Assembly: GCA_964521355.1 (NCBI GenBank) | Contig: CAZFRJ010000001.1 | Span: 1-31,348, forward strand | Length of the DNA: 31,348 nt | From: an uncultured Candidatus Bathyarchaeia archaeon | GTDB taxonomy: Archaea > Thermoproteota > Bathyarchaeia > 40CM-2-53-6 > JALHTG01 | Reading direction: 5' to 3' | Part shown: positions 9,627 to 24,764 of the stretch, one piece after another | How positions within the stretch are numbered: position 1 is the stretch's first letter | Layout: every line of letters starts with the position of its first letter | The notes under the pieces: model-generated | What the model was told of the DNA's origin: nothing | Databases searched by the model: none | Seen by the model: only the letters and a program-made list of their open reading frames with translations | Position numbers and translations under genes: made by a program

Positions 9627-9714
9627 CCTCTTCACCGGCCCGATCACTCTAGGCATCGAATCAAATCTAAAAAGGCTTGCCACCATACGAGACAGCGAGC
9701 GAACCCACTGCAGG

Positions 9715-9722: not shown

Positions 9723-9757
9723 AAAACGAACTGATAGTAAGGGCTGGTGCTGCGTCA

Positions 9758-10615
9758 TTGATCAAGAGAATCGGCGTGGTTTCGAGGCTCGACGATAGTG
9801 AAGCTTTGGAGACTGCAGCCGATCTCTTCAAGTTCATACTTGGCAAGCGCCTTGTTGGAATACCTGAAGAAGAGTTCGCAAGACTGAAACGCCTTGGCGG
9901 TGGAAAGCCTCTCTCCGAAATGAAGGCCGACCTGATAGTCACGGTTGGGGGTGACGGAACGGTTCTGAAGACTTCCATGCTCATTCCTGAAGCTGACACG
10001 CCGATCCTAGCAGTAAATATGGGAAGGCGAGGATATCTGACTGAAGTGTTGCCTGAACAGGGAAGGGAAGCCATCAGCGATTGCCTGAAAGGAAGAGTCA
10101 GACTGGAGGAACACATGAAGCTCTCCGTGGTTCACGGTAGTGGCGCTAGCATCGACGGCCTGAATGAGGCGTTATTCGTGCCCGCTCTTCCCCACAAGAT
10201 GATAGCTCTCAACATAAAGGTTGGAGGACACGACCTTGTCGATTGTCGTGCTGACGGATTGATTGTAGCTACGCCCACCGGCTCTACGGCGCATGCCTTC
10301 TCGGCCGGAGGACCTGTATTGGACCCCTCACTAGAAGCATTCGTGTTGGTGTTCATTTGCCCCGTAGACCCAGTCCACCCTGTGGTTGTTCCAGCGAGGA
10401 AAGAGATCTCGATCAAGTTGAGCAATGCAACCTCCCGAGCTTCCGTTATCGTTGATGGAAGACATCGCCAAGACCTTGCGCCGGGGAAATCGATTTTGAT
10501 AAAGAAATCGAAGCGTAAGGCGGTATTCGTCCGGTTTGACCGGCCAAGGATCAAGAGAAGCTTGGTACGCTTTCCAGCTGTGGAGATAGGAAGAAGTGAG
10601 AGTGCTGGTCCTTGA
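9758..10615 (+). CDS. nadK: NAD(+) kinase
   Basis: VGGDGT, AVNMGRRGYL, LNE, DGLIVATPTGSTAHAFSAGGP. Confidence 0.95.
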   Translation: MIKRIGVVSRLDDSEALETAADLFKFILGKRLVGIPEEEFARLKRLGGGKPLSEMKADLIVTVGGDGTVLKTSMLIPEADTPILAVNMGRRGYLTEVLPEQGREAISDCLKGRVRLEEHMKLSVVHGSGASIDGLNEALFVPALPHKMIALNIKVGGHDLVDCRADGLIVATPTGSTAHAFSAGGPVLDPSLEAFVLVFICPVDPVHPVVVPARKEISIKLSNATSRASVIVDGRHRQDLAPGKSILIKKSKRKAVFVRFDRPRIKRSLVRFPAVEIGRSESAGP

Positions 10616-11132: not shown

Positions 11133-11747
11133 TTGCGGTCACTTACCCAACTGATCAAGAAGGCGCAAGAACTCAAGTCGAGAGGGCTTACCACTCAAGA
11201 GATTTCCGAGGAGTTGAAGGTTCAAGCTGACACAGTTGTCTGGCTTCTTCTTCGCGGAAAGGAGCGACTAAGAAGGCCAGTGCCGATCGACCTTTTCGTT
11301 GACTGGAGTCACATAGGGTCAAACGCTCGTCGTCTCTCTCTCGCGGGCTGGGCACTGGCCGATTTGGCCCGAGAATCGATCAAGAACGAAGAATTTGAGG
11401 CGCCTGATGCTGTCGTCGCAATTGAAGGAAGCGGCATGGTTCTAGGAATGGCTGTGGCAGAACAGCTTGAGAAGCCCTTTGCCGTAGTTAGGCCTCAACG
11501 CATTGCCGATAGGAAGCTGTCGGGAGCAATCAATCCATCGTTTGCGTCCATCGACAACAAGAAAGTGTTGGTGGTTGATGCGGTGCTTATGGAGGGTGAA
11601 ACAGTCAAGGCTGCAGTTCAGACTGCTCGAAGTGTCAGAGCAAAACCTACTGGCATAGTCGTGCTCATAAACAAGAGCAATCAAGACACCATAGACGGGG
11701 TTCCATTGAGAGCGTTAATCCAGCTACTCAGCATGGCAAGGAGTTAA
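11133..11747 (+). CDS. Orotate phosphoribosyltransferase-like regulator (GfcR/PyrE2 family)
   Basis: N-terminal HTH LIKKAQELKSRGLTTQEISEELKVQADTVVWLL; DWSHIG; PRTase fold with degenerate PRPP loop VVDAVLMEGET. Confidence 0.85.
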   Translation: MRSLTQLIKKAQELKSRGLTTQEISEELKVQADTVVWLLLRGKERLRRPVPIDLFVDWSHIGSNARRLSLAGWALADLARESIKNEEFEAPDAVVAIEGSGMVLGMAVAEQLEKPFAVVRPQRIADRKLSGAINPSFASIDNKKVLVVDAVLMEGETVKAAVQTARSVRAKPTGIVVLINKSNQDTIDGVPLRALIQLLSMARS

Positions 11748-12955
11748 TCTCTCTTCGTGAGCTTCGCCACAAAGTAGCCTGAGTCATGGAGCTGGGGATG
11801 GAATCTTTGGGTGAGCCTCCCTTCTGGCAGTGGAGTATCAAACCCTGGTGAGCCAAGCATCAAGTCCTGCTTCTCCACCTCTAGCCCGCACTCGTCAACG
11901 GCAAACCTGACGTTTTCCTCACATTCAGGCAAAGTCATAGTGCAGACACTGTAGACCAGGGTTCCTCTTGGACGAAGTATCTTGGAAGCGGTTTTCAGAA
12001 ATTGCCTCTGATATCGAGAGAGTGCTAGGATTTCCTCCTGTGAAGTGTATTCATATGTCTTAGGCGTGACTCCCAAGGCAGAGCACGGCGGATCCACCAA
12101 GCATCTGTCAGCAACAAGTTCCGGAAAGTCCATATCCAGATATCTCGCATCATGGGTGATCAGCCCCACTCCATGACAACCGAGCCGCTGAAGGTTCTCC
12201 CTAGTGAGAGCAATCTTCCTTTCGTTCCGGTCGACCCCGATCGTTCTTGCAAGTCCTTTCGTGATCTGGCAAATATGCGAGAGCTTGCCTCCTGGCGCAC
12301 AAGTGAGATCAACTATCGTCTCACCGGGCTGTGGGTCTAAGACTCTGGTTGTCAGAATTGCTGGCAAAGACTGAGGATACACAAGGCCCTGCTCGTACTC
12401 TGGCATTTCTCTGAGGCTTGGAACTCTGAATAGGGGAAAGACAACCTCAATGGCAAGTCCTCGTCGAAGGGTCAATATGCTGTTTTCGCTCATTTGGGCG
12501 ATGCCGGCGCCCACGATCTGGCCTTGATCATCACTGATCGAAACTTTGTCGCCTTTCCTCAAGCCCTGACATTTTCTAATGCCCGGGGCGTAGACATGTG
12601 CGCCCTGCAAGACCGACTCGGCTGTGAATTTGTCTACGACGATCTTCTTAGCGAAATCCTGAGTAGATCTTGAGGTTTCAACTTCAAAGTAGAGTGCCTC
12701 ATCAATGAGCGGATGCTTATGTACCTGCAGACCTCTCGTCTCAAACTGCTTTGCAATGTGATCTCCAGTCGTCTTCAGAGTGTTCACTCGAAAATAGTAG
12801 TGCCGTCCCGGCCGTTTTAGCGATTGGATCACTTTGACAAGATCGTCGCCGTAGACTCTTTCCAGTTCTGAGAGTGTGTCCAATGAAAAATGGAATCTTT
12901 TCGCCAGCGCCTCCAACGGGGGCATTCCTGCGCTCTCGTTACTCGCTGATTCCAA
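11744..12955 (-). CDS. PUA-domain RsmB/NOP2-family RNA m5C methyltransferase (archaeal NSUN6-like)
   Basis: PUA: ESVLQGAHVYAPGI; QSLPAILTTRVLDPQPGETIVDLTCAPGGK; DPPCSALG; YSVCT; QRFHP. Alternative ATG at 12925. Confidence 0.9.
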   Translation of the reverse strand: MESASNESAGMPPLEALAKRFHFSLDTLSELERVYGDDLVKVIQSLKRPGRHYYFRVNTLKTTGDHIAKQFETRGLQVHKHPLIDEALYFEVETSRSTQDFAKKIVVDKFTAESVLQGAHVYAPGIRKCQGLRKGDKVSISDDQGQIVGAGIAQMSENSILTLRRGLAIEVVFPLFRVPSLREMPEYEQGLVYPQSLPAILTTRVLDPQPGETIVDLTCAPGGKLSHICQITKGLARTIGVDRNERKIALTRENLQRLGCHGVGLITHDARYLDMDFPELVADRCLVDPPCSALGVTPKTYEYTSQEEILALSRYQRQFLKTASKILRPRGTLVYSVCTMTLPECEENVRFAVDECGLEVEKQDLMLGSPGFDTPLPEGRLTQRFHPQLHDSGYFVAKLTKRD

Positions 12956-12961
12956 TCGAGA

Positions 12962-13465
12962 TTAGAGTCGTAAGATTTCCACTCGTCTGCTTTCAGTATC
13001 CACTGTGGCGATTGTGGATTCTCCGCTGAGGTATCCGCAGACCTCACCGGGGTTGATAATGAGAGTTCCGCCTGAGATATACGATTTTGCTTCATGAGTA
13101 TGCCCGCAAACAATTAGATGATAGTACTGGCTTCTAATCAGAGAGTTGAGTAAGTCGAGTTCACTTCCGTGGGTCAAGGCAACTCTCAATCCGTCCGCTT
13201 CAACTTCTGCGAAGTTTCCACGAACCTCCTTTCCGATTTCAGCGAACCTCTTTCTCAAGACTTCCTTTTCAGCATCATTGTTTCCATAGATCGCTATCAT
13301 TGACGCTTTTAGGTCGCTGAAGGATCTTGGAACAAAAGGGCTTATGATGTCTCCGGCGTGGAGAACGAGTGATACCTTGGCCCGATTTAATACTTCGACT
13401 GCCCTTCTGATCATGGGTAAGTTGTCATGTGTGTCCGATATCGCTCCGATGAGCAAGCCATTCAC
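12962..13465 (-). CDS. YfcE/MJ0936-family metallophosphoesterase
   Basis: ISDTHDN, HAGD, YGNND, THG, GHTH, NPGE. Confidence 0.93.
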   Translation of the reverse strand: MNGLLIGAISDTHDNLPMIRRAVEVLNRAKVSLVLHAGDIISPFVPRSFSDLKASMIAIYGNNDAEKEVLRKRFAEIGKEVRGNFAEVEADGLRVALTHGSELDLLNSLIRSQYYHLIVCGHTHEAKSYISGGTLIINPGEVCGYLSGESTIATVDTESRRVEILRL

Positions 13466-13511
13466 CGCTACCCAGATGCCTCGTCGGAGCTATATTGAGG
13501 TGTCGCAGACG

Positions 13512-13982
13512 CTACTTGCTGTTGATTCGAATGAGATCTTCTATGATCTCTGCGGCCAAGCGTTGTGCGGCTCTTGACGCTTCGTGGCTGAGGCCTCTAG
13601 TGAAATCTGTTCTTGGCTCTATTTCGACTCCGTATATCTTCACTCTCTTCGGCATACTCCTCGATGCGAAGCGCCTTCCGAGCTGATAGGCTGAGGCGAA
13701 GTTGAAGCGATGAGGCGCAGTAAAGTGCACCGTGTTCTCGAGCTGTTCCGGCTTAAGCCTTCGTATGGTTCCGACCTGACCTCTTGTCGCCACTGCGTCG
13801 ATTATTATCGCCCTATCGTACCCCATCATTTCCTCAATGAGTTCAATGCCACCTGCACTGACTTCTTTGATGTCGACGTTGGGGGTATGCGGCAGCTCTC
13901 TCCTCACCAACTCGGCTACGTGGTTTCCCACGCCGTCGTCGCCTAGAAGAGTATTGCCAACACCGATGACGACAGTCTTCAG
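13512..13982 (-). CDS. hycI: [NiFe]-hydrogenase maturation protease (HyaD/HycI family), probable CTG start
   Basis: The frame extends upstream of the track ORF to CTG-KTVVIGVGNTLLGDDGVG; also IIIDAV, TAPHRFN, IYGVEIE. The CTG overlaps the mvhA TGA. Confidence 0.93.
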   Translation of the reverse strand: MKTVVIGVGNTLLGDDGVGNHVAELVRRELPHTPNVDIKEVSAGGIELIEEMMGYDRAIIIDAVATRGQVGTIRRLKPEQLENTVHFTAPHRFNFASAYQLGRRFASRSMPKRVKIYGVEIEPRTDFTRGLSHEASRAAQRLAAEIIEDLIRINSK

Positions 13983-15454
13983 AGGCGCCTCATCCTCTTG
14001 ATCAGCTTCTTCTCCGGGCTGTAGATGTCTATCTCAAGTGGCATCTTTCCCGGCAAGGTGTGTGTCGCGCATGCTAGACATGGGTCATAGGCCCTGAAGG
14101 CCATCTCGACCATGTTCAGAACTTCGCCGTCGGCCTTCCCTTTTCTGATCAGGCTTTGGGCTGCTCTCTTGACGGACATGCATATCCCGGCGTGGTTATG
14201 CGTTGTTGCGACTATCAGGTTGACTGCTTGCATAATTCCCTCTGGATCAGTCCTGTAATGGTGAATCAACGTTCCTCTGGGCGCCTCAATTGCCCCAACG
14301 CCTTCTTTCGGGGTCGCAGTTGGGATGGTTCTCACTTTGTCGCTTCTCACGTCAGGATCCTGAGCCAGCTCCAACAGCCTCTCACTTGCATAGAGCGTCT
14401 CGATGACTCTGGCCCAATGATATGCCAGAGTCTCGTGAGCAGGTCTTCTCAGAATCTCGAACATCTTCTCATAGGCGGCCTGAGCCAACGGAGTTGCGAT
14501 TCCGTCTGCAACATTGAAGCGGGCTAGGGGGCCGACTCTGTAGACGCCGCTGTCCTTTCCTTCAGTCAGACCTTTCCAACCAACATTCTTGAGGTATGGA
14601 AACTTGAGGTAGGTCCATGACTCCACATGCTCCGAGAGATGTTTGAGGTATTCTCTCGGTTCGAATAAGGCAAACTGGCCTCCCTCCGGATCGATTATCC
14701 TTAATCGTCCGTCGTATAGGTTCATCTTTCCATGGTCGTCCACCATACCCATGTAGAATGTTCGAAGCCTATACGAGTCATCTGTGACCAAATCGAAGTG
14801 CTTCTTATTCTTCAAGACTGTGTCTTCGAAGATATCGACTGTGAACTTCGAGTGATCCAAAAGGAATTTGGCCATCTCCTGTATCTTTCCGCAGTCACTC
14901 TCGGAAAGCGGCCTTGAGACTCCTCCTGGAACTGCGAAAACCGGGTGAATGGCTCTGCCGCCCACTATTTCCTCTATTTCATGCGCATATCTCAGCGCTT
15001 TGAGGACATTGCGGCCTGCCTCCACACTTACCTTCTTCAGGACTCCTGCTATGTTTCTCTCCGACGGCGGTGCTCCCGGTCCTACGATGAAGTCTGGTCC
15101 TCCCAGTGCATAGAAGTGGGTTGAATGGTCGTGGACGAAGAATGCGCAGTAGCCCAGTTCCCTTATCTTCTTCGCGGCTTCCGGAGGATCAACACTGTAG
15201 ACCGCGTCCGCTGCCTTCGCTGAGGCAAGATGGTGGTTCCAAGGGCAGACACCACAGATCCTCGTGGTGATATTTGGCATTTCTTCGACTGGTCTTCCCT
15301 CACAGAACTTCTCAAATCCTCTGAGTTCCACAGTCTGGAAATATGCCTCGTCGACATCGCCTTTCTTGTCCAGGAGTATGTGGATCTTGGCGTGTCCCTC
15401 AAGTCTCGTGATAGGGTCAATCTTGATTAGTTTGGTCTTCTGCATGTTAGTCAC
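13979..15454 (-). CDS. mvhA: Group 3c [NiFe]-hydrogenase large subunit MvhA
   Basis: IDPITRLEGH, LRGFEKFCEGR, L1 RICGVC, EAPRGTLIHHY, L2 RAYDPCLACATH plus C-terminal extension. Confidence 0.96.
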   Translation of the reverse strand: MTNMQKTKLIKIDPITRLEGHAKIHILLDKKGDVDEAYFQTVELRGFEKFCEGRPVEEMPNITTRICGVCPWNHHLASAKAADAVYSVDPPEAAKKIRELGYCAFFVHDHSTHFYALGGPDFIVGPGAPPSERNIAGVLKKVSVEAGRNVLKALRYAHEIEEIVGGRAIHPVFAVPGGVSRPLSESDCGKIQEMAKFLLDHSKFTVDIFEDTVLKNKKHFDLVTDDSYRLRTFYMGMVDDHGKMNLYDGRLRIIDPEGGQFALFEPREYLKHLSEHVESWTYLKFPYLKNVGWKGLTEGKDSGVYRVGPLARFNVADGIATPLAQAAYEKMFEILRRPAHETLAYHWARVIETLYASERLLELAQDPDVRSDKVRTIPTATPKEGVGAIEAPRGTLIHHYRTDPEGIMQAVNLIVATTHNHAGICMSVKRAAQSLIRKGKADGEVLNMVEMAFRAYDPCLACATHTLPGKMPLEIDIYSPEKKLIKRMRRL

Positions 15455-16431
15455 TTCTTCAGAGCTTTCCGGTTGAGAATTGATGATGGAAGTGTGAACA
15501 TGTAGAACGTTCCCACCGGATCTTCGATCTCGTCGATGAGCGTTTTGACCTGTTCTTCACTCATCTGTTCCTCTCCTTCTAGGCCTAGTACTGAGCCGAG
15601 TGAAGCGATCATCTTGGCGCCTTGATCAATGGCTTTAGAGGTGGGTCCCATGCAGCCTCGGCAGGGCATGTTTACAGTGATGCATTTGGCTCCGCATCCC
15701 ATCCTTGTCGCCGGCCCTAAGCAGATTATTCCTTGATCCAAGAAGCATTTTTCTTGGTCGGGGATAGTATTGGAGATCCTGTGGATTTTCGGGATCTTCT
15801 TCTCTTGTCGCTTTCTTTGACATTCGTCGCATAGGATTCTGTTCGGAGCAAGCGTCGCCCCTTTCTGTGGCAGTTTTCCTTCTAGAATTGCTTCAACCGC
15901 TTTGTCGACTAGAGCTGTTTCTGGGGGGCATCCCGGGAGGAAGTAGTCTACATCAACGTAGTCATGGAGACATTGGACTGTGTCGAACTTTCTTGGAAGG
16001 TGAAGCGAATAATCGCTAACAGTTGTTTCTGGAATTGGTTCCTTGGAGTCCGGGTTATCCGAGCTAGGTGTCTCCTTATAGACAGTTGCCAGTAACTGTT
16101 TGGTTGTCGTAAGGTTCGCAAGGCCCGGTACGCCGCCATGGCAGGCGCAGGCGCCAAATGCAATCACGGTCTTTGCCTTTTTTCTCAGTAGTTGAGCTAT
16201 CTCCTTGTTTTCTTCGTTGGCGATTGAGCCATGGTAGAGGCAGAGGTCGATGCTGCCGTCTGGGAGTTGCTGAAGTTCTTCAAGCTTCTGATCGGAAGCT
16301 GTAGGCCAGAATACGATCTCGAAAGCCTTGAGTAGATCTGTCAGTTTCTCAGCTAAGTCGACTATGGCCATGTCACAGCCGGAGCATGTTGCACCTAGGC
16401 CGATAGCCAATTTGAGTTTCGTTTGGCTCAT
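15451..16431 (-). CDS. mvhG: [NiFe]-hydrogenase small subunit MvhG
   Basis: CSGCD, FGACACHGGVPG, PGCPP, CDECQR, CFLDQGIICLGPATRMGCGAKC..NMPCRGC; ATG at 16431 (the track ORF is over-extended). Confidence 0.95.
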   Translation of the reverse strand: MSQTKLKLAIGLGATCSGCDMAIVDLAEKLTDLLKAFEIVFWPTASDQKLEELQQLPDGSIDLCLYHGSIANEENKEIAQLLRKKAKTVIAFGACACHGGVPGLANLTTTKQLLATVYKETPSSDNPDSKEPIPETTVSDYSLHLPRKFDTVQCLHDYVDVDYFLPGCPPETALVDKAVEAILEGKLPQKGATLAPNRILCDECQRKRQEKKIPKIHRISNTIPDQEKCFLDQGIICLGPATRMGCGAKCITVNMPCRGCMGPTSKAIDQGAKMIASLGSVLGLEGEEQMSEEQVKTLIDEIEDPVGTFYMFTLPSSILNRKALKK

Positions 16432-16436
16432 TGTTT

Positions 16437-16865
16437 TCAACTCGCTTTGAGGGGGTTCGGGCCTAGGGCTCGAATCTGCTCTGTGAATTCGTTTACGACT
16501 CTGGCGAACTTGTCCGCCTCTGAAGCAGAGATCCATTCGAGCCTTACGCGTTCTCGCTCTATGCCTAGTTGATCGAGAAGTTTGAGGAGCAGATAGTATC
16601 TTCTCCGCGCCTTGAGATTTCCGGTCAGATAGTGGCAGTCGCTTGGGGGATGGCATCCCGCTATGAGCACCCCGTCTGCGCCGTTCTTGAGCGCAGTCAA
16701 TATGAAGCGGGGGTCAACTCGTCCACTACACATTACGCGTATGATTCTCAGGTTGGGGGAATACTGAATTCTGCTTGTCCCTGCTAGATCGGCTCCAGCG
16801 TAGGAGCACCAATTGCAGAGGAAACCGAGTATGTAGGGCTCGAATCTACTTGCCATATCGCTCAC
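16437..16865 (-). CDS. mvhD: [2Fe-2S] subunit MvhD
   Basis: FLCNWCSYAGADLAG, RVMCSGRVD, AGCHPPSDCHY, LEWISASE. Confidence 0.97.
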   Translation of the reverse strand: MSDMASRFEPYILGFLCNWCSYAGADLAGTSRIQYSPNLRIIRVMCSGRVDPRFILTALKNGADGVLIAGCHPPSDCHYLTGNLKARRRYYLLLKLLDQLGIERERVRLEWISASEADKFARVVNEFTEQIRALGPNPLKAS

Positions 16866-18823
16866 TTTGCAGTCGCGTGTTCAATCTGGGTCATAACTTG
16901 CTCATCGGTGAAATGATTCATCCTGATGGCGCCTGCTGGACAGGCAGAAGCGCACGCTCCACATCCCTTGCAGAGCGCTTCGTTGATTCTTGCCCTCTTG
17001 TCTTCAATTGAGATCGCTTGGTAGGGGCATAGAAGAACGCAGATCCCGCAGCCCCCGCATATGGAGTCGTCGACCGTGGCGTAGTAGGGCTCGACTACGT
17101 ACACTCCTGGCGCCATAAGCGACGCGGCTCCTGATGCGGCAGCTTTTGCTTGTGCAACTGCGTCAGGAATGTCCTTCGGGCCAGCCGCAGTTCCTGCGAT
17201 GAGTACGCCCTCGACTACCGTGTCGACTGGTCTCAGTTTCGGGTGGGCTTCTAGGAAGAATCCGTCAGGCCCGGTCGGTATCTTGAGGACTCTTCGGATC
17301 TCCTTTGTGTCTACGCTTGGAATGATCCCGACTGACAGAACGACGAGATCCGCTTCTATCTCTAATGGGTTTCCTGAAAGGGTGTCCTCTGCCCTTACGA
17401 CGAGGTTTTGAGTTTTTGGCTCTTCGAGTATTTCAGCTACTCTTCCCCTTGTAAACAGGACTCCGTAATCCTTTGCGGTCCTTTCGTAGAATTCCTCGAA
17501 GCCTTTGCCGAAGGCTCGTATGTCTATGTAGAATACTCGAACATCGATCTCAGGATGTTTCTCCTTTAGCTGTCTGGCCTGCTTCACTGCGTACATGCAA
17601 CAGACTCTTGAGCAGTAGAGATTGGTTCTCTCATTTCTGGAGCCAACACATTGAGCATAGACGACTCTTCTTGGCTCTTTGAGATCTGAAGGCCTTAGCA
17701 CTTTGCCTGCTGTGGGCCCTGAGGCGTTGAGCATTCGCTCCACCTCGAGCGAAGTCACAACATTTTGGAAGACGCCGTAGTTGTATTCCTGGTCGCTCAA
17801 GGGATTGTACGGGTCGTACCCTGTGGCAACAACTATGGTGTCAACATCAAGCTCAATCTCTTTGGGTGCTTGATCGTAGTCTATTGCTTCGGGTTCGCAG
17901 ACATCTTTGCATTTTCCGCAGGCTAATGGCGTCAGACCGAGGCAGTTTACTTCGTCTAGAACATAAGACGGTGGAACCGCCTGAGGAAACGGAATATAGA
18001 TTGCCTTTCTCCAGCTTAAGTAGGCGTTGAACTCATCTGGGATTTCGACGGGGCAGATTTTCGTGCATTCATCGCATGCTGTGCATTTCTTCTCATCGAC
18101 GTACTTGGGTTTCTGCAGTACCTTGACCTTGAAGTTTCCTATGAATCCTTGAACATCCTTTACCTCGGCGTAGGTGAAGAGTTTCACATTTGGGTGGCGT
18201 GATACGGAAACCATTTTGGGAGTTAGAATGCAAGACGAGCAGTCCATTGTCGGAAAAGTCTTGTCGAGTTGTGCCATTCTTCCTCCTATTGTAGGAGATT
18301 TCTCGACTAGGTAGACCGTGAAGCCTGAGTTTGCCAAATCAAGTGCTGCCGATATGCCTGATATTCCTCCACCTATGACCAAGGCGTTCCTTCCGACTTT
18401 GACCTCTTTCGGTTTAAGTTCCTCTAGCATCGATGCTCTTGCGACCGTCATCCTCAATATGTCTTTGGCGAGCAGCAACGCTTCTTCAGGATTATTCATG
18501 TGAACCCAAGAGTCTTGCTCTCTGATGTTTGCCATCTCGAAGAAGTAGGGTGACAGGCCTTCGTCTTGAAGGACTTTGCGGAACGTTGGCTCGTGTAAGG
18601 TGGGCGTGCAGGCCGCCACTATAACTCGATTGAGCTTGCTCTCATGGATGTCCTTTCTTATCAGCTGTTGTCCTGGGTCTGAGCACATATACGTGTAGTC
18701 TTTGGTCACGACGACGTTCGGGAGGGTTTCCACATAGCTGAGGAGCTTCTTGATGTCGATTACTCCTGCTATGTTGGTTCCGCAGTGGCAGAGGTAGACG
18801 CCTATCCTAGGCTGCTCGGACAT
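16862..18823 (-). CDS. hdrA: Heterodisulfide reductase subunit A (FAD, multiple [4Fe-4S])
   Basis: RIGVYLCHCGTNIAG, ACTPTLHE, GGGISG, QLDKTFPTMDCSSC, SLEVERML, QCVGSR..YCSRVCCMYAVK, EAHPKLRPV, two C-terminal CxxCxxCxxxCP. Confidence 0.97.
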   Translation of the reverse strand: MSEQPRIGVYLCHCGTNIAGVIDIKKLLSYVETLPNVVVTKDYTYMCSDPGQQLIRKDIHESKLNRVIVAACTPTLHEPTFRKVLQDEGLSPYFFEMANIREQDSWVHMNNPEEALLLAKDILRMTVARASMLEELKPKEVKVGRNALVIGGGISGISAALDLANSGFTVYLVEKSPTIGGRMAQLDKTFPTMDCSSCILTPKMVSVSRHPNVKLFTYAEVKDVQGFIGNFKVKVLQKPKYVDEKKCTACDECTKICPVEIPDEFNAYLSWRKAIYIPFPQAVPPSYVLDEVNCLGLTPLACGKCKDVCEPEAIDYDQAPKEIELDVDTIVVATGYDPYNPLSDQEYNYGVFQNVVTSLEVERMLNASGPTAGKVLRPSDLKEPRRVVYAQCVGSRNERTNLYCSRVCCMYAVKQARQLKEKHPEIDVRVFYIDIRAFGKGFEEFYERTAKDYGVLFTRGRVAEILEEPKTQNLVVRAEDTLSGNPLEIEADLVVLSVGIIPSVDTKEIRRVLKIPTGPDGFFLEAHPKLRPVDTVVEGVLIAGTAAGPKDIPDAVAQAKAAASGAASLMAPGVYVVEPYYATVDDSICGGCGICVLLCPYQAISIEDKRARINEALCKGCGACASACPAGAIRMNHFTDEQVMTQIEHATAK

Positions 18824-19373
18824 TTTTCTCCTCCACCAGTTTCAGCATGTAGTCGTAGCCCGCGGTGAAAGCGCTAAGGTTAAGCTTGTCGGTTCCTCTT
18901 GGCACAAAGCGGACTATCGCTTTTTCCACGGCTTTGGGATCGATGACCTTTGATGCGGCTGTTACGCTTCCGATCATCACCATGTTTGCAACGATTCTCT
19001 TTCCGGTTTTCTCGGCCATTCTTACTGTAGGAACAGCGTACATCTTCGCGTTCCTTATCTCCTTGAGACTAGTGACCATGTCAGGATCGTAGATTACGAT
19101 TCCCCCAGGTTTTATGTCGCCTACGTACTTGTCGAATGCCTCTTGTGACATTACGCCAATGAGGTCGGGTTGCTCGACCTTTGGATAATCGATTTCACTG
19201 TCCGAGATGACGACTTCAGATTTGCATGCCCCGCCTCTGGCTTCGGGTCCATATGATTGAGTCTGTGTTGCTTTCTTTTCGTCGAAGATGGCCGCCGCAG
19301 TTCCAAGAACGACTCCGGCTAGCACGATTCCTTGGCCGCCGAGCCCTCCAAGCCGAATCTCATAGCGGAGCAT
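18807..19373 (-). CDS. korC: 2-oxoacid:ferredoxin oxidoreductase gamma subunit
   Basis: EIRLGGLGGQGIVLAG, QSYGPEARGGAC, ANMVMIG. Confidence 0.92.
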   Translation of the reverse strand: MLRYEIRLGGLGGQGIVLAGVVLGTAAAIFDEKKATQTQSYGPEARGGACKSEVVISDSEIDYPKVEQPDLIGVMSQEAFDKYVGDIKPGGIVIYDPDMVTSLKEIRNAKMYAVPTVRMAEKTGKRIVANMVMIGSVTAASKVIDPKAVEKAIVRFVPRGTDKLNLSAFTAGYDYMLKLVEEKNVRAA

Positions 19374-20226
19374 TCGTTACCTTTTCCTCCTGATCAAGCC
19401 TTCCTTGAATGGTGATCATCTGTTGCCTCAGCAGGTCTGTGTATTCGGGCTTGTCGACGTCGACGAATTCACCCACTACGATCTTGTCCAACCCGACTTC
19501 AGCCTTGAGAGGATCTGTGAAATGTTGAATGATGCTCTTTTCCTTGAGCCAGTTGGACTGATCCATGGCGCCAGGCATTTTGTTTCTTCTACCGTATTGT
19601 TCGGGACAAGGAGAAATTACCTCAACAAAGGTGAAGCCCTTCTTCGCCAGTGCTTTTTTGATTGACTCTCTTATTCTTCGAACATGTATTGTAGTCCATC
19701 TAGCCACATAGACAGCGCCTGAGGCCGCTGCCAAATGGACAAGGTTGAAGGGGTGTTCAATATTACCGTACGGTGTTGTTGTAGTTCTGTCTTGGAGTAT
19801 GGTCGTAGGCCCGGATTGCCCTCCAGTCATTCCATAGTTGAAGTTGTTTGAGCAAATCACGGTCATGTCTATGTTTCTTCGGGCCGCGTGAATGAAGTGG
19901 TTTCCTCCTATGGCAAAAAGGTCTCCGTCTCCGCTAATCACTACTACCTTGAGATCTGGCCTTGTGGCCTTCAACCCTACGGCGAAGGCAATCGCACGTC
20001 CGTGGGTGGTGTGGAAGCCATCTAGGTTGACGTATCCGGATATCCTGCCTATGCATCCAATCCCTGAGACCACTACGACCTTGTCGAGATTCATCTTCAA
20101 TTCGTCGAGTGCGCGCAGATATTCGCTAAGAATGACACCATCCCCGCACCCGGCACACCAAATATGGGGAATCATGCCTTTCCGCGTAAACCTCTCCAAA
20201 GGATGCGCTTCTTCAATCATCATCAA
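19360..20226 (-). CDS. korB: 2-oxoacid:ferredoxin oxidoreductase beta subunit (TPP-binding)
   Basis: PHIWCAGCGDG, SGIGC, HTTHGR, GDGDLFAIGGNHFIHAARRN, YGMTGGQ, EVISPCP; starts possible at 20226, 20223 or 20220. Confidence 0.94.
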   Translation of the reverse strand: MMMIEEAHPLERFTRKGMIPHIWCAGCGDGVILSEYLRALDELKMNLDKVVVVSGIGCIGRISGYVNLDGFHTTHGRAIAFAVGLKATRPDLKVVVISGDGDLFAIGGNHFIHAARRNIDMTVICSNNFNYGMTGGQSGPTTILQDRTTTTPYGNIEHPFNLVHLAAASGAVYVARWTTIHVRRIRESIKKALAKKGFTFVEVISPCPEQYGRRNKMPGAMDQSNWLKEKSIIQHFTDPLKAEVGLDKIVVGEFVDVDKPEYTDLLRQQMITIQGRLDQEEKVTNAPL

Positions 20227-21368
20227 TTCCTCGTAAGATGTGCGAGGAGCTCTTCAGGTGTGTGAGGGTCTTCGCCTAGTTTCGGTACGAACGCGATTCT
20301 GCGATAATCAAATCTTCGTTCGACTTCTCGAACGATCTGGCCGTAGTTCATCTCTGCGACTACGATCCTATCTACCTGACTTGTGACGCTTTCTATTTCC
20401 TTGTCCGGGAATGGCCAGATCGTTGTCAAGCCAAGGAACCCGGCCTTTATTCCTCGTTTCCTGGCACGGGTTACTGCAGCTATGGCAGATCTGGCTACGC
20501 TTCCATATGCGATTAGGCATACATTGGCGTCCTCCAAGAAAAGTTTCTTGACTTGGACTATTGCGTCTCTGTTTCTTCTTATCTTGTCGCATAGTCTCTT
20601 AACGAGTTTCGTCTGCTCTTCGACGCTGTCAGTTTGCGGATGTCCTGTCTCGTCATGTGTGAGTCCGGTCGCGTAGAATCTGTAGCCTTCTCCGAATACT
20701 GCCATCGGTGGAACAAGATCCTTGTCAGGGTGGAATGGTTTGTAAAGCTCCGGGGGTACAGTTGGCTTCTTTCTATTGACGATCTTGATTTCGTCGGAAA
20801 AGGGGATAACAAGTCTCTCTCTCATGTGACCTATCAGTTCGTCCATCATCACGAAAACGGGAATTCTATATCTCTCTGCCAAGTTGAAGGCTTGAACAGT
20901 CAGGTCAAAAGCTTCTTGGACCGAAGAAGGTGAAAGCGCTACAATCTCGTAATCTCCATGCGAACCCCATTTCGCCTGCATTATGTCCTGCTGCCCAGCT
21001 TTTGTCGGCTGACCTGTGCTGGGGCCGCCTCTCATCACGTCGACGATTACGATTGGGGTCTCGGTCATGACTGCTAGCCCTATGTTCTCCTGCATGAGGC
21101 TGAATCCTGGGCCGGATGTTGAGGTCATAGACTTGACTCCTCCATAAGATGCGCCGATTATCGCTGCGACCGAGCCAATCTCATCCTCCATTTGGAGGTA
21201 GACCCCTCCAACTTCGGGCAATCTTCTCGCCATGTGCTCCGCCACTTCGGTGGCGGGTGTGATCGGGTAACCTGCAAAGAACCTGCAGCCCGCAGCTAGC
21301 GCGCCCTCAGCGCATGCGATGTCTCCTTGGGTGAAGTGCGCTCCACTCAATAGGTCTCTTCTTAGCAT
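20223..21368 (-). CDS. korA: 2-oxoacid:ferredoxin oxidoreductase alpha subunit
   Basis: FAGYPITPATE, QMEDEIGS, TSTSGPGFSLMQE, RGGPSTGQPT, WGSHGD; ATG at 21368 with SD GGAGG. Confidence 0.95.
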   Translation of the reverse strand: MLRRDLLSGAHFTQGDIACAEGALAAGCRFFAGYPITPATEVAEHMARRLPEVGGVYLQMEDEIGSVAAIIGASYGGVKSMTSTSGPGFSLMQENIGLAVMTETPIVIVDVMRGGPSTGQPTKAGQQDIMQAKWGSHGDYEIVALSPSSVQEAFDLTVQAFNLAERYRIPVFVMMDELIGHMRERLVIPFSDEIKIVNRKKPTVPPELYKPFHPDKDLVPPMAVFGEGYRFYATGLTHDETGHPQTDSVEEQTKLVKRLCDKIRRNRDAIVQVKKLFLEDANVCLIAYGSVARSAIAAVTRARKRGIKAGFLGLTTIWPFPDKEIESVTSQVDRIVVAEMNYGQIVREVERRFDYRRIAFVPKLGEDPHTPEELLAHLTRN

Positions 21369-21634
21369 TTGCCTTCCTCCTTCTTTCGTTGGAAAATGGC
21401 GAGGTCGGGGCAGATCTCCTCGCATAGGCCGCATCCGACACATGCCTCCTCATTCACGACACGAGGCGGGTGTACGCCGTGTACGTTCAGCTTAGGATCG
21501 TAGTCAAGCACATCTTTCGGGCAGAGCTTTATGCAGAGTTCGCAGCCTTTGCATCTGTCCGGCACGGTGACAATATCGACTTCGAGTATCTTCAGCTTGT
21601 GCTGGGGAGAAAGCGGCCTTCTAGTCGTCTCCAA
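21362..21634 (-). CDS. korD: 2-oxoacid:ferredoxin oxidoreductase delta subunit (2x[4Fe-4S] ferredoxin)
   Basis: CKGCELCIKLCP and CVGCGLCEEICPDLAI; TTG at 21634 follows GGGAGGG (alternative TTG at 21667). Confidence 0.92.
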   Translation of the reverse strand: METTRRPLSPQHKLKILEVDIVTVPDRCKGCELCIKLCPKDVLDYDPKLNVHGVHPPRVVNEEACVGCGLCEEICPDLAIFQRKKEEGKC

Positions 21635-21758
21635 TGCCCTCCCGCCACTAGACACGGGATTCTTCAACGTAGGCGTGCTTTCTCACCTTTCAACCTTGTC
21701 GGAGACTATTCGGCTGCATCCGGCCCGGCTCGAAGCGATGCCAGAATTATCACATGCC

Positions 21759-21765
21759 TATAAAA
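21759..21765. promoter_or_regulatory. Putative TATA box between the divergent kor-hdr-mvh operon and moaE
   Basis: TATAAAA (plus) / TTTTATA (minus) is the only TATA-like tract in the 155-190-bp gap. Confidence 0.5.
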
Positions 21766-21822
21766 CCGTATGCTTAGAAGAGTATCTGGCAAACAACAAT
21801 TCTTGGAAGTGCGGGTTAGAGT

Positions 21823-22302
21823 TTGGAGAAGGGCGATTTGCGGGAAAGAGTAGGAATCCACAAAAAGGACGAATTCAGGTTGGAGGATCTGCTGAACCGA
21901 GTGAAGGCTCATGAACGCTTCAAAGATGTTGGAGGAATAGGCATTTTCATCGGAGTAACACGGAGTACCTCAGCCAAAGGCGAACCTGTTTCTCACCTAG
22001 AGCTAGAAGCCTACGAAGGCAGGGCCCAAGAAGCAATGGCGTCTATAGCGGATGAAATCTCTGGCCGAAGAGGGATAGTGGATGTTCTCATACACCATGT
22101 CGTGGGGAAGCTGAAACAAGGCGAACTGATAATGGCCGTGCTCGTGGCCGGAAGATCTAGAAAGGACGTTTTTCCGGCACTGATCGAAGCTGTTGAAAGA
22201 ACAAAGAGCACGGTCCCCATCTGGAAGAAAGAGTTCCTGACCACCGGAGAATCCTATTGGGTCAGCGAGAATGATCGTTCCGCCGAGTCTGAGGAAGACT
22301 GA
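21823..22302 (+). CDS. moaE: Molybdopterin synthase catalytic subunit MoaE
   Basis: GGIGIFIGVTR, LELEAYE, HHVVGKL, VLVAGRSRKDVF, KSTVPIWKKE. Confidence 0.93.
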   Translation: MEKGDLRERVGIHKKDEFRLEDLLNRVKAHERFKDVGGIGIFIGVTRSTSAKGEPVSHLELEAYEGRAQEAMASIADEISGRRGIVDVLIHHVVGKLKQGELIMAVLVAGRSRKDVFPALIEAVERTKSTVPIWKKEFLTTGESYWVSENDRSAESEED

Positions 22303-22322
22303 ATCTCTACAGTTTAGCCGCT

Positions 22323-22347
22323 AGACTACCGTGCCACCGGTCAGTCC
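22323..22347. terminator. Hairpin between convergent moaE and tlpA-like genes (possible terminator)
   Basis: AGACT-ACCG-TGCCAC-CGGT-C-AGTCC folds into a bulged stem 20 nt after the moaE stop. Confidence 0.3.
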
Positions 22348-22468
22348 TTCAATAGCTAATGGTAATCACTAACCGCGTAATGTTGCCGAAGTGAATCGAT
22401 GGCACTCGCCTCCGACCGGGGGGGCTGTTCAATAACGATTGAAAAGAAAGAGGATCGCCTTCGAGAAT

Positions 22469-23107
22469 CTAGGAGATATTCGTGTCATGCTGGCCCTGAA
22501 CTTGTGTTGGACTAGCATATGTGACGAGCCTGTGCTTTCCCTTACGTAGCAGAAGCAAGGCAGTTGCAAGTGAAAGAGTCATCACGATGGATAGTGTACC
22601 AAACTCCGGTATTATCACATCAATTCTTGACCGGAGGATCCTTTCTTCAGTCAATCCTACATATCTCTCTCGTATGTAACCCTCTTGATCGACTAGGATT
22701 AGCGTCGGAATTTCTACGACTTGGTACTTATTTGCCACGCCGGCACTATCCATCGATGGAGGAACAACTATCCAAGTCATTTCATACTCCTGCACCCATT
22801 TTCTGACAGCCAGCTCTGTGTCAAGGACGGGATCTACGTCGATTGAGATTATCACTAGCGTATTGTTCGGGTAAGCGTTTGACAGGGCTTTGAGGTGTGG
22901 TATCTCTTCTCTGCAAGGCCGACACCAAGTGGCAAAGAAATCTATCAGAACGATTCTTCCCCTAAAATCGGAAAGCGAGAAGCGTCTTCTATTCAAGTCT
23001 GTCAATGTGAAGTTCGGGGCTATCGGTTGTCCGTGCGAAGAACCGACTTCAAGAATGAGAAGAGTAGTGGCCAGTAGTAGAACGCCTGCAAGCGTCGTGC
23101 GGTGCAT
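22469..23107 (-). CDS. Secreted TlpA/ResA-like thioredoxin-fold protein with PEF(G)-CTERM-like sorting tail
   Basis: Hydrophobic signal peptide; APNFTLTDL, VLIDFFATWCRPCREEIP, IPTLILVD..G; C-terminal IPEFG + hydrophobic helix + RKGKHR. Alternative starts at 23116 and 23134. Confidence 0.88.
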   Translation of the reverse strand: MHRTTLAGVLLLATTLLILEVGSSHGQPIAPNFTLTDLNRRRFSLSDFRGRIVLIDFFATWCRPCREEIPHLKALSNAYPNNTLVIISIDVDPVLDTELAVRKWVQEYEMTWIVVPPSMDSAGVANKYQVVEIPTLILVDQEGYIRERYVGLTEERILRSRIDVIIPEFGTLSIVMTLSLATALLLLRKGKHRLVTYASPTQVQGQHDTNIS

Positions 23108-23252
23108 GAACTTCACTAGGAAGGCCTCTTTCAACCGCTATTAAGCGTTTATGCGGATCCCGCTAGGTCTGTTAGGTTTGAGCGGTTTGATTTTGAGTCC
23201 CAACAACTCTTATTAGAGAAGTTGCACTTCGAAAACTTGGAGTCAAGGGTCG

Positions 23253-23675
23253 ATGGTTGAGAAAGTTCTTGTCCCGGTTGACGGTTCAAAGGCGATGGAT
23301 CGAAACGTCAGGTTCGCCTGCGATCTCCTCAAGACCTTGGGAGGAACTATGACCTTGATTCATGTTGTCATTCTGCCCGCTTCCATGGAGCCCGGGGTAC
23401 CCATTGATCCTACGCCTCTGGAGCAGGCAGGAGCGAGGATTCTGGAGGCTGCGCAGAAAATCGCGGAGGAGGAGGGTTGCAAGGCCGAAGGAATTCTTGA
23501 GACTGATTTCGGGAATGCGGGTCACAGGATAGTTAGGATTGCTCAGGAGAAGGGATTCACTCTCATAGTGATAGGTGCGAGAGGTAAGAGCAAGATCGCC
23601 AACCTCTTGTTGGGAAGCGTCTGTGACGTGGTGGCACACAACGCACCGTGTCCCGTTCTGATTGCTCGCCCGTAG
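23253..23675 (+). CDS. Universal stress protein (UspA family)
   Basis: KVLVPVDGS, IVIGARGKSKIANLLLGSV, APCPVL. Confidence 0.95.
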   Translation: MVEKVLVPVDGSKAMDRNVRFACDLLKTLGGTMTLIHVVILPASMEPGVPIDPTPLEQAGARILEAAQKIAEEEGCKAEGILETDFGNAGHRIVRIAQEKGFTLIVIGARGKSKIANLLLGSVCDVVAHNAPCPVLIARP

Positions 23676-23773
23676 CGGCAGATCAAGAGAACTCTGCAAT
23701 TGTCGGAGTGTTCTGGTCGACAAGGAAAGCCTTATTGTTCACTCGATAAGAATTACGAGCGTGGATCAACAAG

Positions 23774-24178
23774 ATGTTTCAAAAGGGTCTAGTTCCCGTC
23801 GACGGCTCCCCGTATATGCCCGGACTCGTGGCATATGCCATAGCCTTAGCAAAGAAGACTGGATGCTCTCTAACCTTCGTATATGCTGTGAATATGCCCC
23901 CTACGGCGTCCGCCTCTGACATAGAGAAGCAGAAGGCTGCTAGCATGAAGATTCCGGAGGAGTGCAAAGAGAAGGCTGCTAATGAAGGATTGTCAGCTTC
24001 ATCGAGAATCGAGGTTGGATCTCCAGCAGAAACGATCGTCAACATGGCTGAACGTGAAAAGTTCGATTTGATAATCATTGCCTCACGAGGCTACAGTCGC
24101 TTGAGGAGGCTGATTGTTGGAAGCGTTGCAGATCAAGTGATGAAGCTGGCTCCGTGCCCTGTTCTATTGTTTAGGTGA
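23774..24178 (+). CDS. Universal stress protein (UspA family), second copy
   Basis: LVPVDGS, GSPAETI, IIIASRGYSRLRRLIVGSVA, APCPVL. Confidence 0.94.
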   Translation: MFQKGLVPVDGSPYMPGLVAYAIALAKKTGCSLTFVYAVNMPPTASASDIEKQKAASMKIPEECKEKAANEGLSASSRIEVGSPAETIVNMAEREKFDLIIIASRGYSRLRRLIVGSVADQVMKLAPCPVLLFR

Positions 24179-24380
24179 ACTGCTTCTCGCATTTCACGTA
24201 GTCTTTCTAGATGACCAATGTCTTGTGGCCGATCGTTTCGTTACGTGACGGTGGCCTCTTTCACCATCTGACAGTTGCAGGTTGACGCAGGTTTTTTCTA
24301 GTTCCACCTCACACCTTCCAAACAAAACTCTTTATTCAGAGGCTACTTGTACCTCGTTGGCGCCAAGTTTGGTGAGGAGA

Positions 24381-24764
24381 ATGATTGAGAATCTCTCAAA
24401 GGTACAATTAGAAGCGATCTTTGAGTCACTTCCGGTTGACATCACGTTCATTGATGGTGACGATACTGTGAGGTACTACAATAGGGACGGCAAAAGAATC
24501 TTTGTCCGCACCCCCGCAGTTATTGGCAGGAAAGTGCAAAACTGTCACCCACCCAAAAGCCTACCGGCAGTAAATCAGCTTCTCAATGAGTTTAGGAGTG
24601 GAAAGAGAGATGTCGCAGAGTTCTGGATTCAAATGAAAGGCCGCATGATCTTCATCAGATACTTTCCCGTCAGAGATAGTGACGGGAAATATCTGGGATG
24701 TCTAGAGGTTTCTGAGGATATCGCCGAGATGAGGAAGTTAGAGGGCGAGAAGAGGCTACTGTAA
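24381..24764 (+). CDS. Stand-alone PAS domain protein (PAS_10 type, as in DUF438/hemerythrin fusions)
   Basis: LEAIFESLPVDITFID, IFVRTPAVIGRKVQNCHPPKS, EFWI, IRYFPVRD..G.YLG.LEV; ATG at 24381 after SD GGTGAGGAG. Confidence 0.9.
   Translation: MIENLSKVQLEAIFESLPVDITFIDGDDTVRYYNRDGKRIFVRTPAVIGRKVQNCHPPKSLPAVNQLLNEFRSGKRDVAEFWIQMKGRMIFIRYFPVRDSDGKYLGCLEVSEDIAEMRKLEGEKRLL

Follow-up and report, generated by a model that had tools for sequence, protein, structure and literature searches.

In the solved Mvh-Hdr complexes, electrons from H2 pass through MvhG and MvhD to the flavin of HdrA, from where they reach a high-potential acceptor by way of HdrC and HdrB, and ferredoxin by way of the C-terminal domain of HdrA. 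The characterised four-subunit 2-oxoacid oxidoreductases (Kor or Oor) of Thermococcales and Helicobacter use soluble ferredoxin or flavodoxin. Electron-bifurcating, CO2-fixing Mvh/Fdh-Hdr-Fmd supercomplexes were reportedly described by Watanabe et al. in 2021. In supercomplexes of this kind, the low-potential arm of HdrA runs via polyferredoxin straight into the CO2-fixing formylmethanofuran dehydrogenase (PMC13580544). A co-expressed cluster of the reductive tricarboxylic acid (rTCA) cycle in tubeworm symbionts and Thioflavicoccus, flxABCD-hdrA-korABCD-hdrBC-tfrAB, was proposed to encode a complex shuttling bifurcated electrons directly to 2-oxoglutarate oxidoreductase (PMC6315080, PMC11636981). 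For the cultured Asgard archaeon MK-D1, evolution of H2 via MvhADG-HdrABC from 2-oxoacid electrons was proposed, with free ferredoxin as the carrier (PMC7015854). Genome surveys of Bathyarchaeia describe the role of Mvh-type hydrogenases as unclear and many genomes as having no route to recycle reduced ferredoxin (PMC9534799). The present analysis concerns an operon that places the genes of a four-subunit Kor next to those of HdrA and an Mvh-type [NiFe] hydrogenase, in a stretch of 31,348 nucleotides (nt; hereafter the window) from an uncultured Candidatus Bathyarchaeia archaeon (GenBank assembly GCA_964521355.1, contig CAZFRJ010000001.1, positions 1 to 31,348).

The operon consists of nine genes, korD-korA-korB-korC-hdrA-mvhD-mvhG-mvhA-hycI, which lie on the minus strand from position 21634 to position 13512. 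Translations were searched with Pfam and NCBIfam profiles, and all nine names were supported. The junctions, read from the sequence in the order korD to hycI, are overlaps of 7, 4, 14, 17 and 4 nt, a gap of 5 nt, and overlaps of 4 and 4 nt. The initial annotation had given nine genes on one strand with these eight values, which were confirmed exactly (the starts of korB and hycI, treated below, are refinements), and its view of the nine genes as one translationally coupled unit is borne out by the overlaps. With a probability of about one half, in our estimate, the operon encodes a single bifurcating or confurcating assembly centred on HdrA, in which Kor would form the low-potential arm and Mvh that for H2, with a high-potential arm provided in trans.

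The four-subunit Kor/Oor set is complete, alpha, beta, gamma and delta being encoded together (Pfam). The delta gene korD (21362 to 21634, 90 amino acids (aa), TTG start) encodes a protein resembling 2x[4Fe-4S] ferredoxins, matched by Fer4 and Fer4_7 and carrying two cluster motifs. The alpha gene korA (20223 to 21368, 381 aa), which shares 7 nt with korD, encodes a product with POR_N and PFOR_II domains that scored 580 bits against NF006412 (2-oxoacid:acceptor oxidoreductase alpha; cut-off 411); its best solved relative is the alpha subunit of the Pyrococcus 2-keto acid:ferredoxin oxidoreductase (1YD7/4WBX), followed by 2-oxoglutarate synthases. The beta gene korB (19360 to 20226, or more likely from ATG 20223; 287-288 aa) encodes the thiamine pyrophosphate (TPP) subunit, with a TPP_enzyme_C domain and a GDG...NN TPP motif visible in the translation. 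The gamma gene korC (18807 to 19373, 188 aa), overlapping korB by 14 nt, matched PF01558 (POR) and scored 235 bits against NF006323, exactly at the cut-off of 235. Models of Por, Vor and Ior scored much lower on this Kor than 2-oxoglutarate-type models, and an Asp-aminotransferase-like gene and sucCD are among the neighbours in relatives; on family-level similarity, the substrate pair is likely 2-oxoglutarate and succinyl-CoA plus CO2. KorD had been put forward in the initial annotation as a dedicated wire between the two complexes. This proposal was dropped: KorD adds nothing to the ordinary delta subunit that all four-subunit 2-oxoacid oxidoreductases possess, and no polyferredoxin is present.

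The hdrA gene (16862 to 18823, 653 aa), which overlaps korC by 17 nt, encodes a full-length flavoprotein of the bifurcation type without fusion to MvhD. Residues 3-648 aligned to HdrA of Methanothermococcus (5ODC_A, 863 bits), HdrA models matched over the whole length, and the cysteine motifs CHCG, DCSSC, CxxCxxCxxxCP and CCMY are conserved; by alignment and motifs, this is a full-length HdrA with the flavin adenine dinucleotide (FAD) and Fe-S cysteine motifs of MvhADG-HdrABC. The connector gene mvhD (16437 to 16865, 142 aa, [2Fe-2S]), overlapping hdrA by 4 nt, matched PF02662 (FlpD, E = 1e-55) and VhuD (146 bits). The small-subunit gene mvhG (15451 to 16431, 326 aa) starts at ATG 16431, 5 nt past the mvhD stop, and matched Oxidored_q6, its best NCBIfam model being VhuG (228 bits, below the equivalog cut-off). 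The large-subunit gene mvhA (13979 to 15454, 491 aa; Mvh/Vhu, group 3c-like) matched VhuA best (382 bits, below the equivalog cut-off), and its best solved relative is MvhA 5ODC_F (388 bits). MvhD, MvhG and a group 3c-like MvhA are all present by NCBIfam and solved-structure similarity. MvhA has the nickel-site motifs RICGVC and DPCLACATH, followed by a 26-residue C-terminal extension, and this tail for proteolytic maturation explains the presence of a dedicated protease gene, hycI (13512 to 13982, hydrogenase maturation endopeptidase, 156 aa), whose product belongs to the TIGR00072 maturation protease superfamily (108 bits; cut-off 47). Both elements of [NiFe] maturation, the large-subunit extension after DPCxxCxxH and the cognate endopeptidase, are thus encoded.

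Two further features of HdrA were recorded. An inserted ferredoxin domain with Cx7CxxCxxxC spacing, CLGLTPLACGKCKDVCEP, is encoded at 17888-17941 (residues ~295-312); the insertion is common to Kor-linked HdrAs fused to MvhD and several bacterial-type HdrAs, and is absent from methanogen and Asgard HdrA. An in-frame TGA was seen in hdrA of a number of related contigs (L032, L051, L052, L054, L057, L058, L061, L063, L064, L075-L077, L079, L123 and others); in L123, the only one of these inspected in an alignment, its position is that of the conserved DCSxC motif, as would suit a selenocysteine-containing HdrA, and the window has cysteine there (DCSSC).

At least 11 independent contigs, all from one Bathyarchaeia clade, carry the nine-gene order (L001, L080-L084, L087-L091; about 20 kb of each related contig was read), so that neither chance nor an error of assembly can account for the arrangement. 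When species-representative genomes were scanned with HdrA, one close relative came up, a Candidatus Bathyarchaeota metagenome-assembled genome (MAG) from Polar Fox Lagoon (L001), with an HdrA 87% identical and an identical succession of nine genes; when metagenomes were scanned with MvhA, the contig of the window itself (L080) was recovered, together with ten others in which this succession is whole or cut short (L081-L084, L087-L091). MvhA is 82-98% identical across these clade contigs, and the clade proteins in general mostly 77-100%, with lower values for hycI (60-100%). Loss of the kor-hdrA junction in relatives had been named beforehand as the finding that would speak against the unit; the junction is conserved, its 17-nt overlap being kept in all but one of the clade contigs spanning it, and Kor adjoins HdrA-MvhD across phyla. 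Other relatives of MvhA (at most 60% identity) lie in (hdrCB-)hdrA-mvhDGA-hycI or GltD-like-hdrA-mvhDGA clusters with no adjacent kor. One contig of the wider clade (L160; Ga0212089_10000897, 1-10339) reads korDABC-hdrA-mvhD-mvhG-mvhA-yfcE-rsmB and has no hycI; its KorA and HdrA are 75% identical to those of the window and its kor-hdrA-mvhD products 68-77% (korC 60%), with only 44% for MvhG/MvhA. By these comparisons, the complete arrangement is the mark of one Bathyarchaeia clade, and the hydrogenase has been exchanged even within the wider clade.

Beyond the clade, kor adjoined hdrA(-mvhD) in 32 of 79 HdrA loci from species-representative genomes, archaeal and bacterial, in both gene orders and in Bathyarchaeia, Thermodesulfobacteriota/Syntrophales, Bacteroidales and WOR-3. 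Most Bathyarchaeia have a GltD-like gene, hdrA fused to mvhD, korDABC and yfcE in this order; Thermodesulfobacteriota and Syntrophales MAGs have korDABC, fused hdrA-mvhD, hdrC and hdrB; MAGs labelled Bacteroidales have korDABC, the GltD-like gene and fused hdrA-mvhD; and one Bathyarchaeia and one WOR-3 MAG have korDABC-hdrC-hdrB-hdrA. The GltD-like protein scored 348 bits against the model for the small subunit of NADPH-dependent glutamate synthase and has an HdrC-like N-terminus, and HdrB of a Geothermarchaeales MAG (L162) passes the HdrB equivalog cut-off (TIGR03288, 349 bits against 345). The junction between kor and hdrA is tight elsewhere as well, with a 0-nt gap or overlaps of 1-4 nt (L162, L164, L166). 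All seven sampled KorA homologues (69-78% identity), among them those of Bathyarchaeota BA1 and of Geothermarchaeales and Methanofastidiosia MAGs, adjoin hdrA, and Kor copies in these loci that are not linked reach only 51-53% identity; by this measure, the linked Kor is a dedicated HdrA-associated family. Across the 79 loci, only Kor shows linkage to HdrA; Por, Vor and Ior do not.

MvhGA is the partner of Kor-HdrA in this clade only, its place being taken elsewhere by the GltD-like NAD(P)H subunit or by HdrCB. Conservation of the operon across Bathyarchaeia and the TACK archaea, one of the checks set by the initial annotation, holds for the widespread kor-hdrA link and not for MvhGA-hycI, a variable module that joins Kor in one clade only. 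Judged from gene order, the conserved core is Kor, HdrA and MvhD, with MvhGA-hycI as a lineage-specific partner, and a third component that varies (GltD-like protein, HdrB/HdrC pair or MvhGA) fits the pattern expected of exchangeable arms on one HdrA hub.

Neighbouring genes were noted in several of these loci. In L162 and L164, korDABC-hdrA/mvhD-hdrCB is flanked by an Asp-aminotransferase-like gene, DUF1152 and an acyl-CoA dehydrogenase gene (in L162, the Asp-aminotransferase-like gene stands before the cluster, and hdrCB and the acyl-CoA dehydrogenase gene follow); L163 ends inside hdrA and shows only the aminotransferase; and L164 adds a CoA-disulfide-reductase-like gene, ETF-QO, sucCD and a second, unlinked kor set. 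These neighbours hint at amino-acid or acyl-CoA catabolism, possibly involving a CoA-type disulfide. In bacterial Kor-HdrA-HdrCB loci, the neighbours were uninformative except for one ADP-forming acyl-CoA-synthetase-like gene. Contig L047 (DATKLC010000024.1), labelled Krumholzibacteriaceae, matches the Bathyarchaeota contig L050 in its module and in the three genes downstream, and is probably a mis-binned archaeal contig.

By overall identity, the window's unfused HdrA is 58-60% identical to HdrA of methanogens, Hydrothermarchaeota and Asgard archaea, against 51-57% to the Kor-linked fused clade, and it fell outside the Kor-linked fused HdrA-MvhD clade on a neighbour-joining tree (without bootstrap, and read as a hint only). 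The window's Kor, downstream yfcE and divergent moaE are those of the Kor-linked Bathyarchaeia loci. In L161 (JBGGGV010001264.1, 1-8605), moaE lies between a fused hdrA/mvhD with a GltD-like gene and a korDABC set with an unfused hdrA; the latter is 77% identical to that of the window and has the same 17-nt overlap with korC, so that L161 is a possible intermediate in module exchange. The simplest reading, which we hold loosely, is that a canonical hdrA-mvhDGA-hycI cassette joined a Kor that already worked with an HdrA, and that the NAD(P)H-type module was then lost. A kor-hdrA link re-formed with a different HdrA would argue for function.

In the HdrA-centred assembly that we favour, H2 or protons would be exchanged at MvhA, and electrons would pass between MvhG, the [2Fe-2S] cluster of MvhD and the FAD of HdrA, as in the solved MvhAGD-HdrABC. 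The low-potential arm, at the C-terminal 2x[4Fe-4S] domain of HdrA, would be served by Kor (KorD and then TPP-bearing KorB) instead of free ferredoxin, which supposes that KorD contacts HdrA in an Mvh-HdrA-Kor assembly. For the high-potential arm, an HdrBC-like partner or another acceptor or donor would act in trans. Kor would be a natural occupant of the low-potential arm, since its reaction lies at about -520 mV, and the recurrent, coupled kor-hdrA adjacency together with exchangeable second modules suggests a hub with interchangeable arms. The choice of Kor could reflect a pairing of succinyl-CoA/2-oxoglutarate with fumarate/succinate or an acyl-CoA/enoyl-CoA step around the midpoint of H2 or NAD(P)H, and such a pairing with a high-potential step would explain why Kor is linked instead of Por, Vor or Ior. 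What the sequences show is the identity of the genes, their tight coupling, their conservation and the swapping of modules; that a physical complex forms, that Kor sits on its low-potential arm, that a third arm exists and which way electrons run are all inferred from gene content and comparison.

Several observations weigh against this assembly. A confurcating or bifurcating enzyme needs a third redox arm beside the H2 and 2-oxoacid arms encoded in the operon, so that the scheme is incomplete as encoded. Neither the window nor the flanks read at the 11 clade loci (L001, L080-L084, L087-L091) contained HdrB/HdrC-like open reading frames (ORFs), tfr or another gene for a high-potential third arm; the search of the window around the operon gave housekeeping genes only. 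No polyferredoxin that could bridge in the manner of MvhB or FmdF is encoded in the operon, and KorD could equally dock free ferredoxin. The 2-oxoglutarate-specific NCBIfam models, best or near-best for this Kor, stayed below their cut-offs (KorB 271 against 364, KorA 403 against 579, KorD (OGOR_delta) 61 against 125). The cassette-swap history is insecure, since the Cx7CxxCxxxC indel ties the window's HdrA to the Kor-linked HdrAs and the tree is without bootstrap. Finally, hdrA was found in none of the RNA sequencing runs, the window sequence being found only in sediment DNA metagenomes. The suggestion in the initial annotation that reduced ferredoxin from Kor feeds HdrA for confurcating H2 evolution is thus upheld as to a conserved link between Kor and HdrA and falls short as to the arms. 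The third arm may lie elsewhere in the genome, since unlinked hdrBC genes are common among methanogens, M. marburgensis being one case (PMC6085437). Without such an arm, the assembly would be a plain H2-evolving 2-oxoacid oxidoreductase.

Among the alternatives, the one that best withstands the evidence, although we consider it unlikely, is that Kor and Mvh-HdrA (with HdrBC in trans) are separate complexes made from a shared promoter and linked by one free ferredoxin pool, which either complex would reduce and the other re-oxidise. It accords with KorD being an ordinary delta subunit with no bridging polyferredoxin encoded beside it, with the use of soluble ferredoxin or flavodoxin by the Thermococcales and Helicobacter enzymes, and with the principle that gene adjacency shows a functional link and not physical contact. 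The model proposed for MK-D1 likewise relies on free ferredoxin (PMC7015854). Two separate enzymes fit less well with the translational coupling of kor and hdrA in several independent lineages (17 nt are shared here, and in L162, L164 and L166 the genes abut with a 0-nt gap or overlap by 1-4 nt), or with the finding that Por, Vor and Ior, drawing on the ferredoxin pool that Kor uses, have no linkage to HdrA.

A non-bifurcating relay, in which HdrA-MvhD only conducts electrons between Kor and its partner, would make the system a simple, H2-evolving 2-oxoacid:H+ oxidoreductase at the present locus and, in sister lineages, a 2-oxoacid dehydrogenase that reduces NAD(P)+. The two substrate arms of the operon suffice for it, and from textbook potentials the transfer from 2-oxoacid oxidation (about -520 mV) to H2 (-414 mV) is exergonic without coupling. 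The joining of a 2-oxoacid:ferredoxin oxidoreductase to an NAD-linked flavoprotein also has a precedent in the Pad family, PadEFGHI being a five-subunit phenylglyoxylate:NAD+ oxidoreductase of this composition; Pad models match weakly here. We nevertheless judge a relay improbable: HdrA keeps every feature of a bifurcating enzyme, a 653-aa flavoprotein with six clusters would be needless for bare conduction, and many related loci encode bona fide HdrB/HdrC beside Kor-HdrA (TIGR03288, 349 against 345 bits). That hdrBC is often unlinked from hdrA and mvh in methanogens (PMC6085437) also tells against reading two arms as the whole. Fortuitous synteny of functionally unrelated kor and hdrA-mvh genes is effectively refuted by conservation, with 32 of 79 HdrA loci linked against about 1% expected for a random gene pair within 10 kb, 7 of 7 KorA contexts linked, and recurrence across domains and gene orders.

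If the operon does encode the HdrA-centred bifurcating or confurcating assembly, it could work in either direction. In a catabolic mode, electrons from a 2-oxoacid and from a higher-potential donor would be confurcated to H2; in an anabolic mode, H2 would drive reductive carboxylation while a high-potential acceptor is reduced. We lean slightly to the H2-evolving catabolic direction for a lineage of peptide fermenters. It would be favoured by the genes for an aminotransferase, an acyl-CoA dehydrogenase and an acyl-CoA synthetase found next to the module in related loci, by the peptide-fermenting lifestyle and absent ferredoxin-recycling route of Bathyarchaeia (PMC9534799) and, by analogy, by H2 evolution through Mvh-Hdr as conceived for MK-D1 (PMC7015854). 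Analogy with the rTCA cluster of the tubeworm symbionts would favour reductive carboxylation (PMC6315080, PMC11636981).

Start codons were examined at three genes. The 4-nt overlap of mvhA and hycI, within 13979-13985 on the minus strand, depends on a CTG start of hycI at 13982, which overlaps the mvhA TGA. A start at GTG 13931, which gives the longest canonical ORF and a 47-nt gap to mvhA, was rejected on account of the conserved N-terminus KTVVIGVGNTLLGDDGVG encoded upstream of it; in that region the hycI frame has no ATG, GTG or TTG across the conserved protease N-terminus. The TIGR00072 alignment begins at residue 4 of the CTG-started protein, and NTGA at the mvhA/hycI junction is kept in 12 related contigs (L001, L081-L091), as CTGA in 9 and TTGA in 3. 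On this comparison, the start position is real and its codon non-canonical, and the NTGA site suggests termination-reinitiation coupling with a non-canonical start. The start region of korB (20218-20226, minus strand) reads as a tandem TTG-ATG-ATG. A GAGGA motif lies 5 nt upstream of ATG 20223, and L081 has TTA where the window has TTG 20226; because of this Shine-Dalgarno spacing and the TTA in L081, korB probably starts at ATG 20223, so that korA and korB would overlap by 1 nt (TGATG) instead of 4 nt. The TTG start of korD at 21634 is conserved in seven relatives; a longer ORF from TTG 21667 was rejected, as relatives have frame-shifting indels there. A GGAGGAAGG motif precedes the korA start, and a GGAGGAG (Shine-Dalgarno) motif precedes that of hdrA, inside korC.

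A TATA-like box, TTTTATAG (21758 to 21765, minus strand), about 125 nt upstream of the korD start, is the putative operon promoter. When ten TATA-like hexamers were sought on the operon strand from 11500 to 22400 (~11 kb), it was the sole match, against 11 +/- 4 expected from a first-order Markov model (minimum 2 in 300 simulations), and it is conserved in 7 clade relatives; the single upstream TATA box of the initial annotation was thus confirmed. The box lies in the 188-nt intergenic region common to korD and the divergent moaE, and because this region is shared, we infer its assignment to the operon strand. Over the same interval, TATA-like hexamers are strongly depleted in coding sequence of the minus strand (1 seen, about 11 expected). 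Within the operon, only one T5 run was found (in korB), and terminator-like hairpins were not enriched relative to shuffled sequences. Neither an internal TATA-like box nor a terminator was found that would divide the transcript; the presence of such an element had been set beforehand as decisive against a single unit. A scan with bacterial-type promoter and terminator models was set aside, as its matches were no commoner than in shuffled sequences and such models are unsuited to an archaeon; the counts of TATA hexamers and T-runs were used instead. The leader of ~100 nt is not unusually structured (z = -0.06), and no Rfam families or tRNAs were found in the window.

There is no T-run after hycI. 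A gene for a yfcE-family metallophosphoesterase (12962 to 13465, minus strand, 167 aa; Metallophos_2/TIGR00040) starts 46 nt past hycI, again with no T-run between, and a gene for an RsmB/F-PUA RNA methyltransferase (11744 to 12955, minus strand, 403 aa; Pfam) follows after 6 nt. Given these short gaps and the missing T-run, the unit may be longer than nine genes, with yfcE as a possible tenth. A yfcE-family gene ends the Kor/HdrA module in many Bathyarchaeia (L037, L047, L050, L074, L160, L165, L167), whether preceded by korC, mvhA or hycI; the RsmB/F-PUA gene, also a neighbour in L160, probably reflects synteny only. On the other side, moaE (21823 to 22302, plus strand; PF02391) is the divergent neighbour of korD and a synteny marker common to other Bathyarchaeia Kor/HdrA loci (L001, L022, L039, L044, L050, L060, L074, L161). 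Upstream of moaE, 22469-24764 encodes a thioredoxin/AhpC-like protein, two universal stress proteins and a PAS-domain protein, for which no operon link was found.

All parts of the operon belong to known families and the clustering of kor with flx and hdr is already known; as judged from gene content, kor-hdrA-mvhDGA is a new combination. In a full-text literature search, in which subscription-journal reviews were outside reach, neither a kor-hdrA-mvhDGA operon nor the much commoner GltD-like-HdrA-Kor module of Bathyarchaeia was found described, and only the gammaproteobacterial flx-hdr-kor cluster came to light. Tentatively, and at somewhat less than even odds, the locus may represent an uncharacterised class of bifurcating or confurcating enzymes, in which a TPP-dependent 2-oxoacid oxidoreductase would be wired firmly into the low-potential arm of HdrA, bypassing free ferredoxin, and the second arm would be exchangeable; in this clade, the enzyme would act directly as an H2:2-oxoacid (2-oxoglutarate) oxidoreductase. 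Bathyarchaeia rank among the most abundant archaea of sediments, and such an enzyme, if real, would explain orphan group-3c hydrogenases and the missing ferredoxin-recycling route in their non-methanogenic members. The Kor-HdrA-Mvh coupling offers a concrete, testable answer to both the role of Mvh and the recycling of ferredoxin in Bathyarchaeia, and the comparative data describe an HdrA-associated Kor family with interchangeable partner modules across archaeal and bacterial phyla. If the complexes form, HdrA bifurcation would extend to 2-oxoacid chemistry that forms or cleaves C-C bonds (reductive TCA steps, amino-acid fermentation, syntrophy), and the supercomplex principle, known so far only for formylmethanofuran dehydrogenase in methanogens, would reach beyond them.

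Compared with MvhAGD-HdrABC of methanogens (PDB 5ODC), the locus has an HdrA that matches over its full length, all of MvhD, MvhG and MvhA, and a like mvhD-G-A order; it differs in having no HdrB/HdrC or MvhB nearby, no methanogenesis genes in the window, and Kor coupled upstream of hdrA. The Thermococcales 2-oxoglutarate oxidoreductase and OorDABC of Helicobacter have alpha, beta, gamma and delta subunits of the same sizes and domains, with the D-A-B-C order as in oorDABC, but they work with soluble ferredoxin or flavodoxin and without a link to HdrA, whereas here kor is coupled to hdrA. With the cluster of tubeworm symbionts (Endoriftia) and Thioflavicoccus, the sole common feature is the adjacency of kor and hdrA, a four-subunit Kor being interleaved with hdrA there; that cluster has an NADH-dependent FlxABCD donor, HdrBC and thiol:fumarate reductase, whereas the present locus is archaeal and has a [NiFe] hydrogenase, and no flx, hdrBC, tfr or acl (ATP-citrate lyase) genes were found in the 31-kb window. 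The Mvh/Fdh-Hdr-Fmd supercomplexes share the concept that low-potential electrons of HdrA pass directly to a CO2-fixing enzyme with no free ferredoxin, as is proposed here; they are bridged by polyferredoxins (MvhB or FmdF), whereas the sole candidate bridge here is the two-cluster KorD and the target would be a TPP-dependent 2-oxoacid synthase/oxidoreductase. Closest is the GltD-like-HdrA/MvhD-KorDABC-YfcE module of other Bathyarchaeia (BA1), which has the same Kor family (KorA 65-72% identity), HdrA and MvhD coupled to Kor, and yfcE and moaE as shared neighbours; its HdrA is fused to MvhD and belongs to another clade, its partner is an NAD(P)H-type flavoprotein and its gene order is reversed, whereas the window has MvhGA-HycI.

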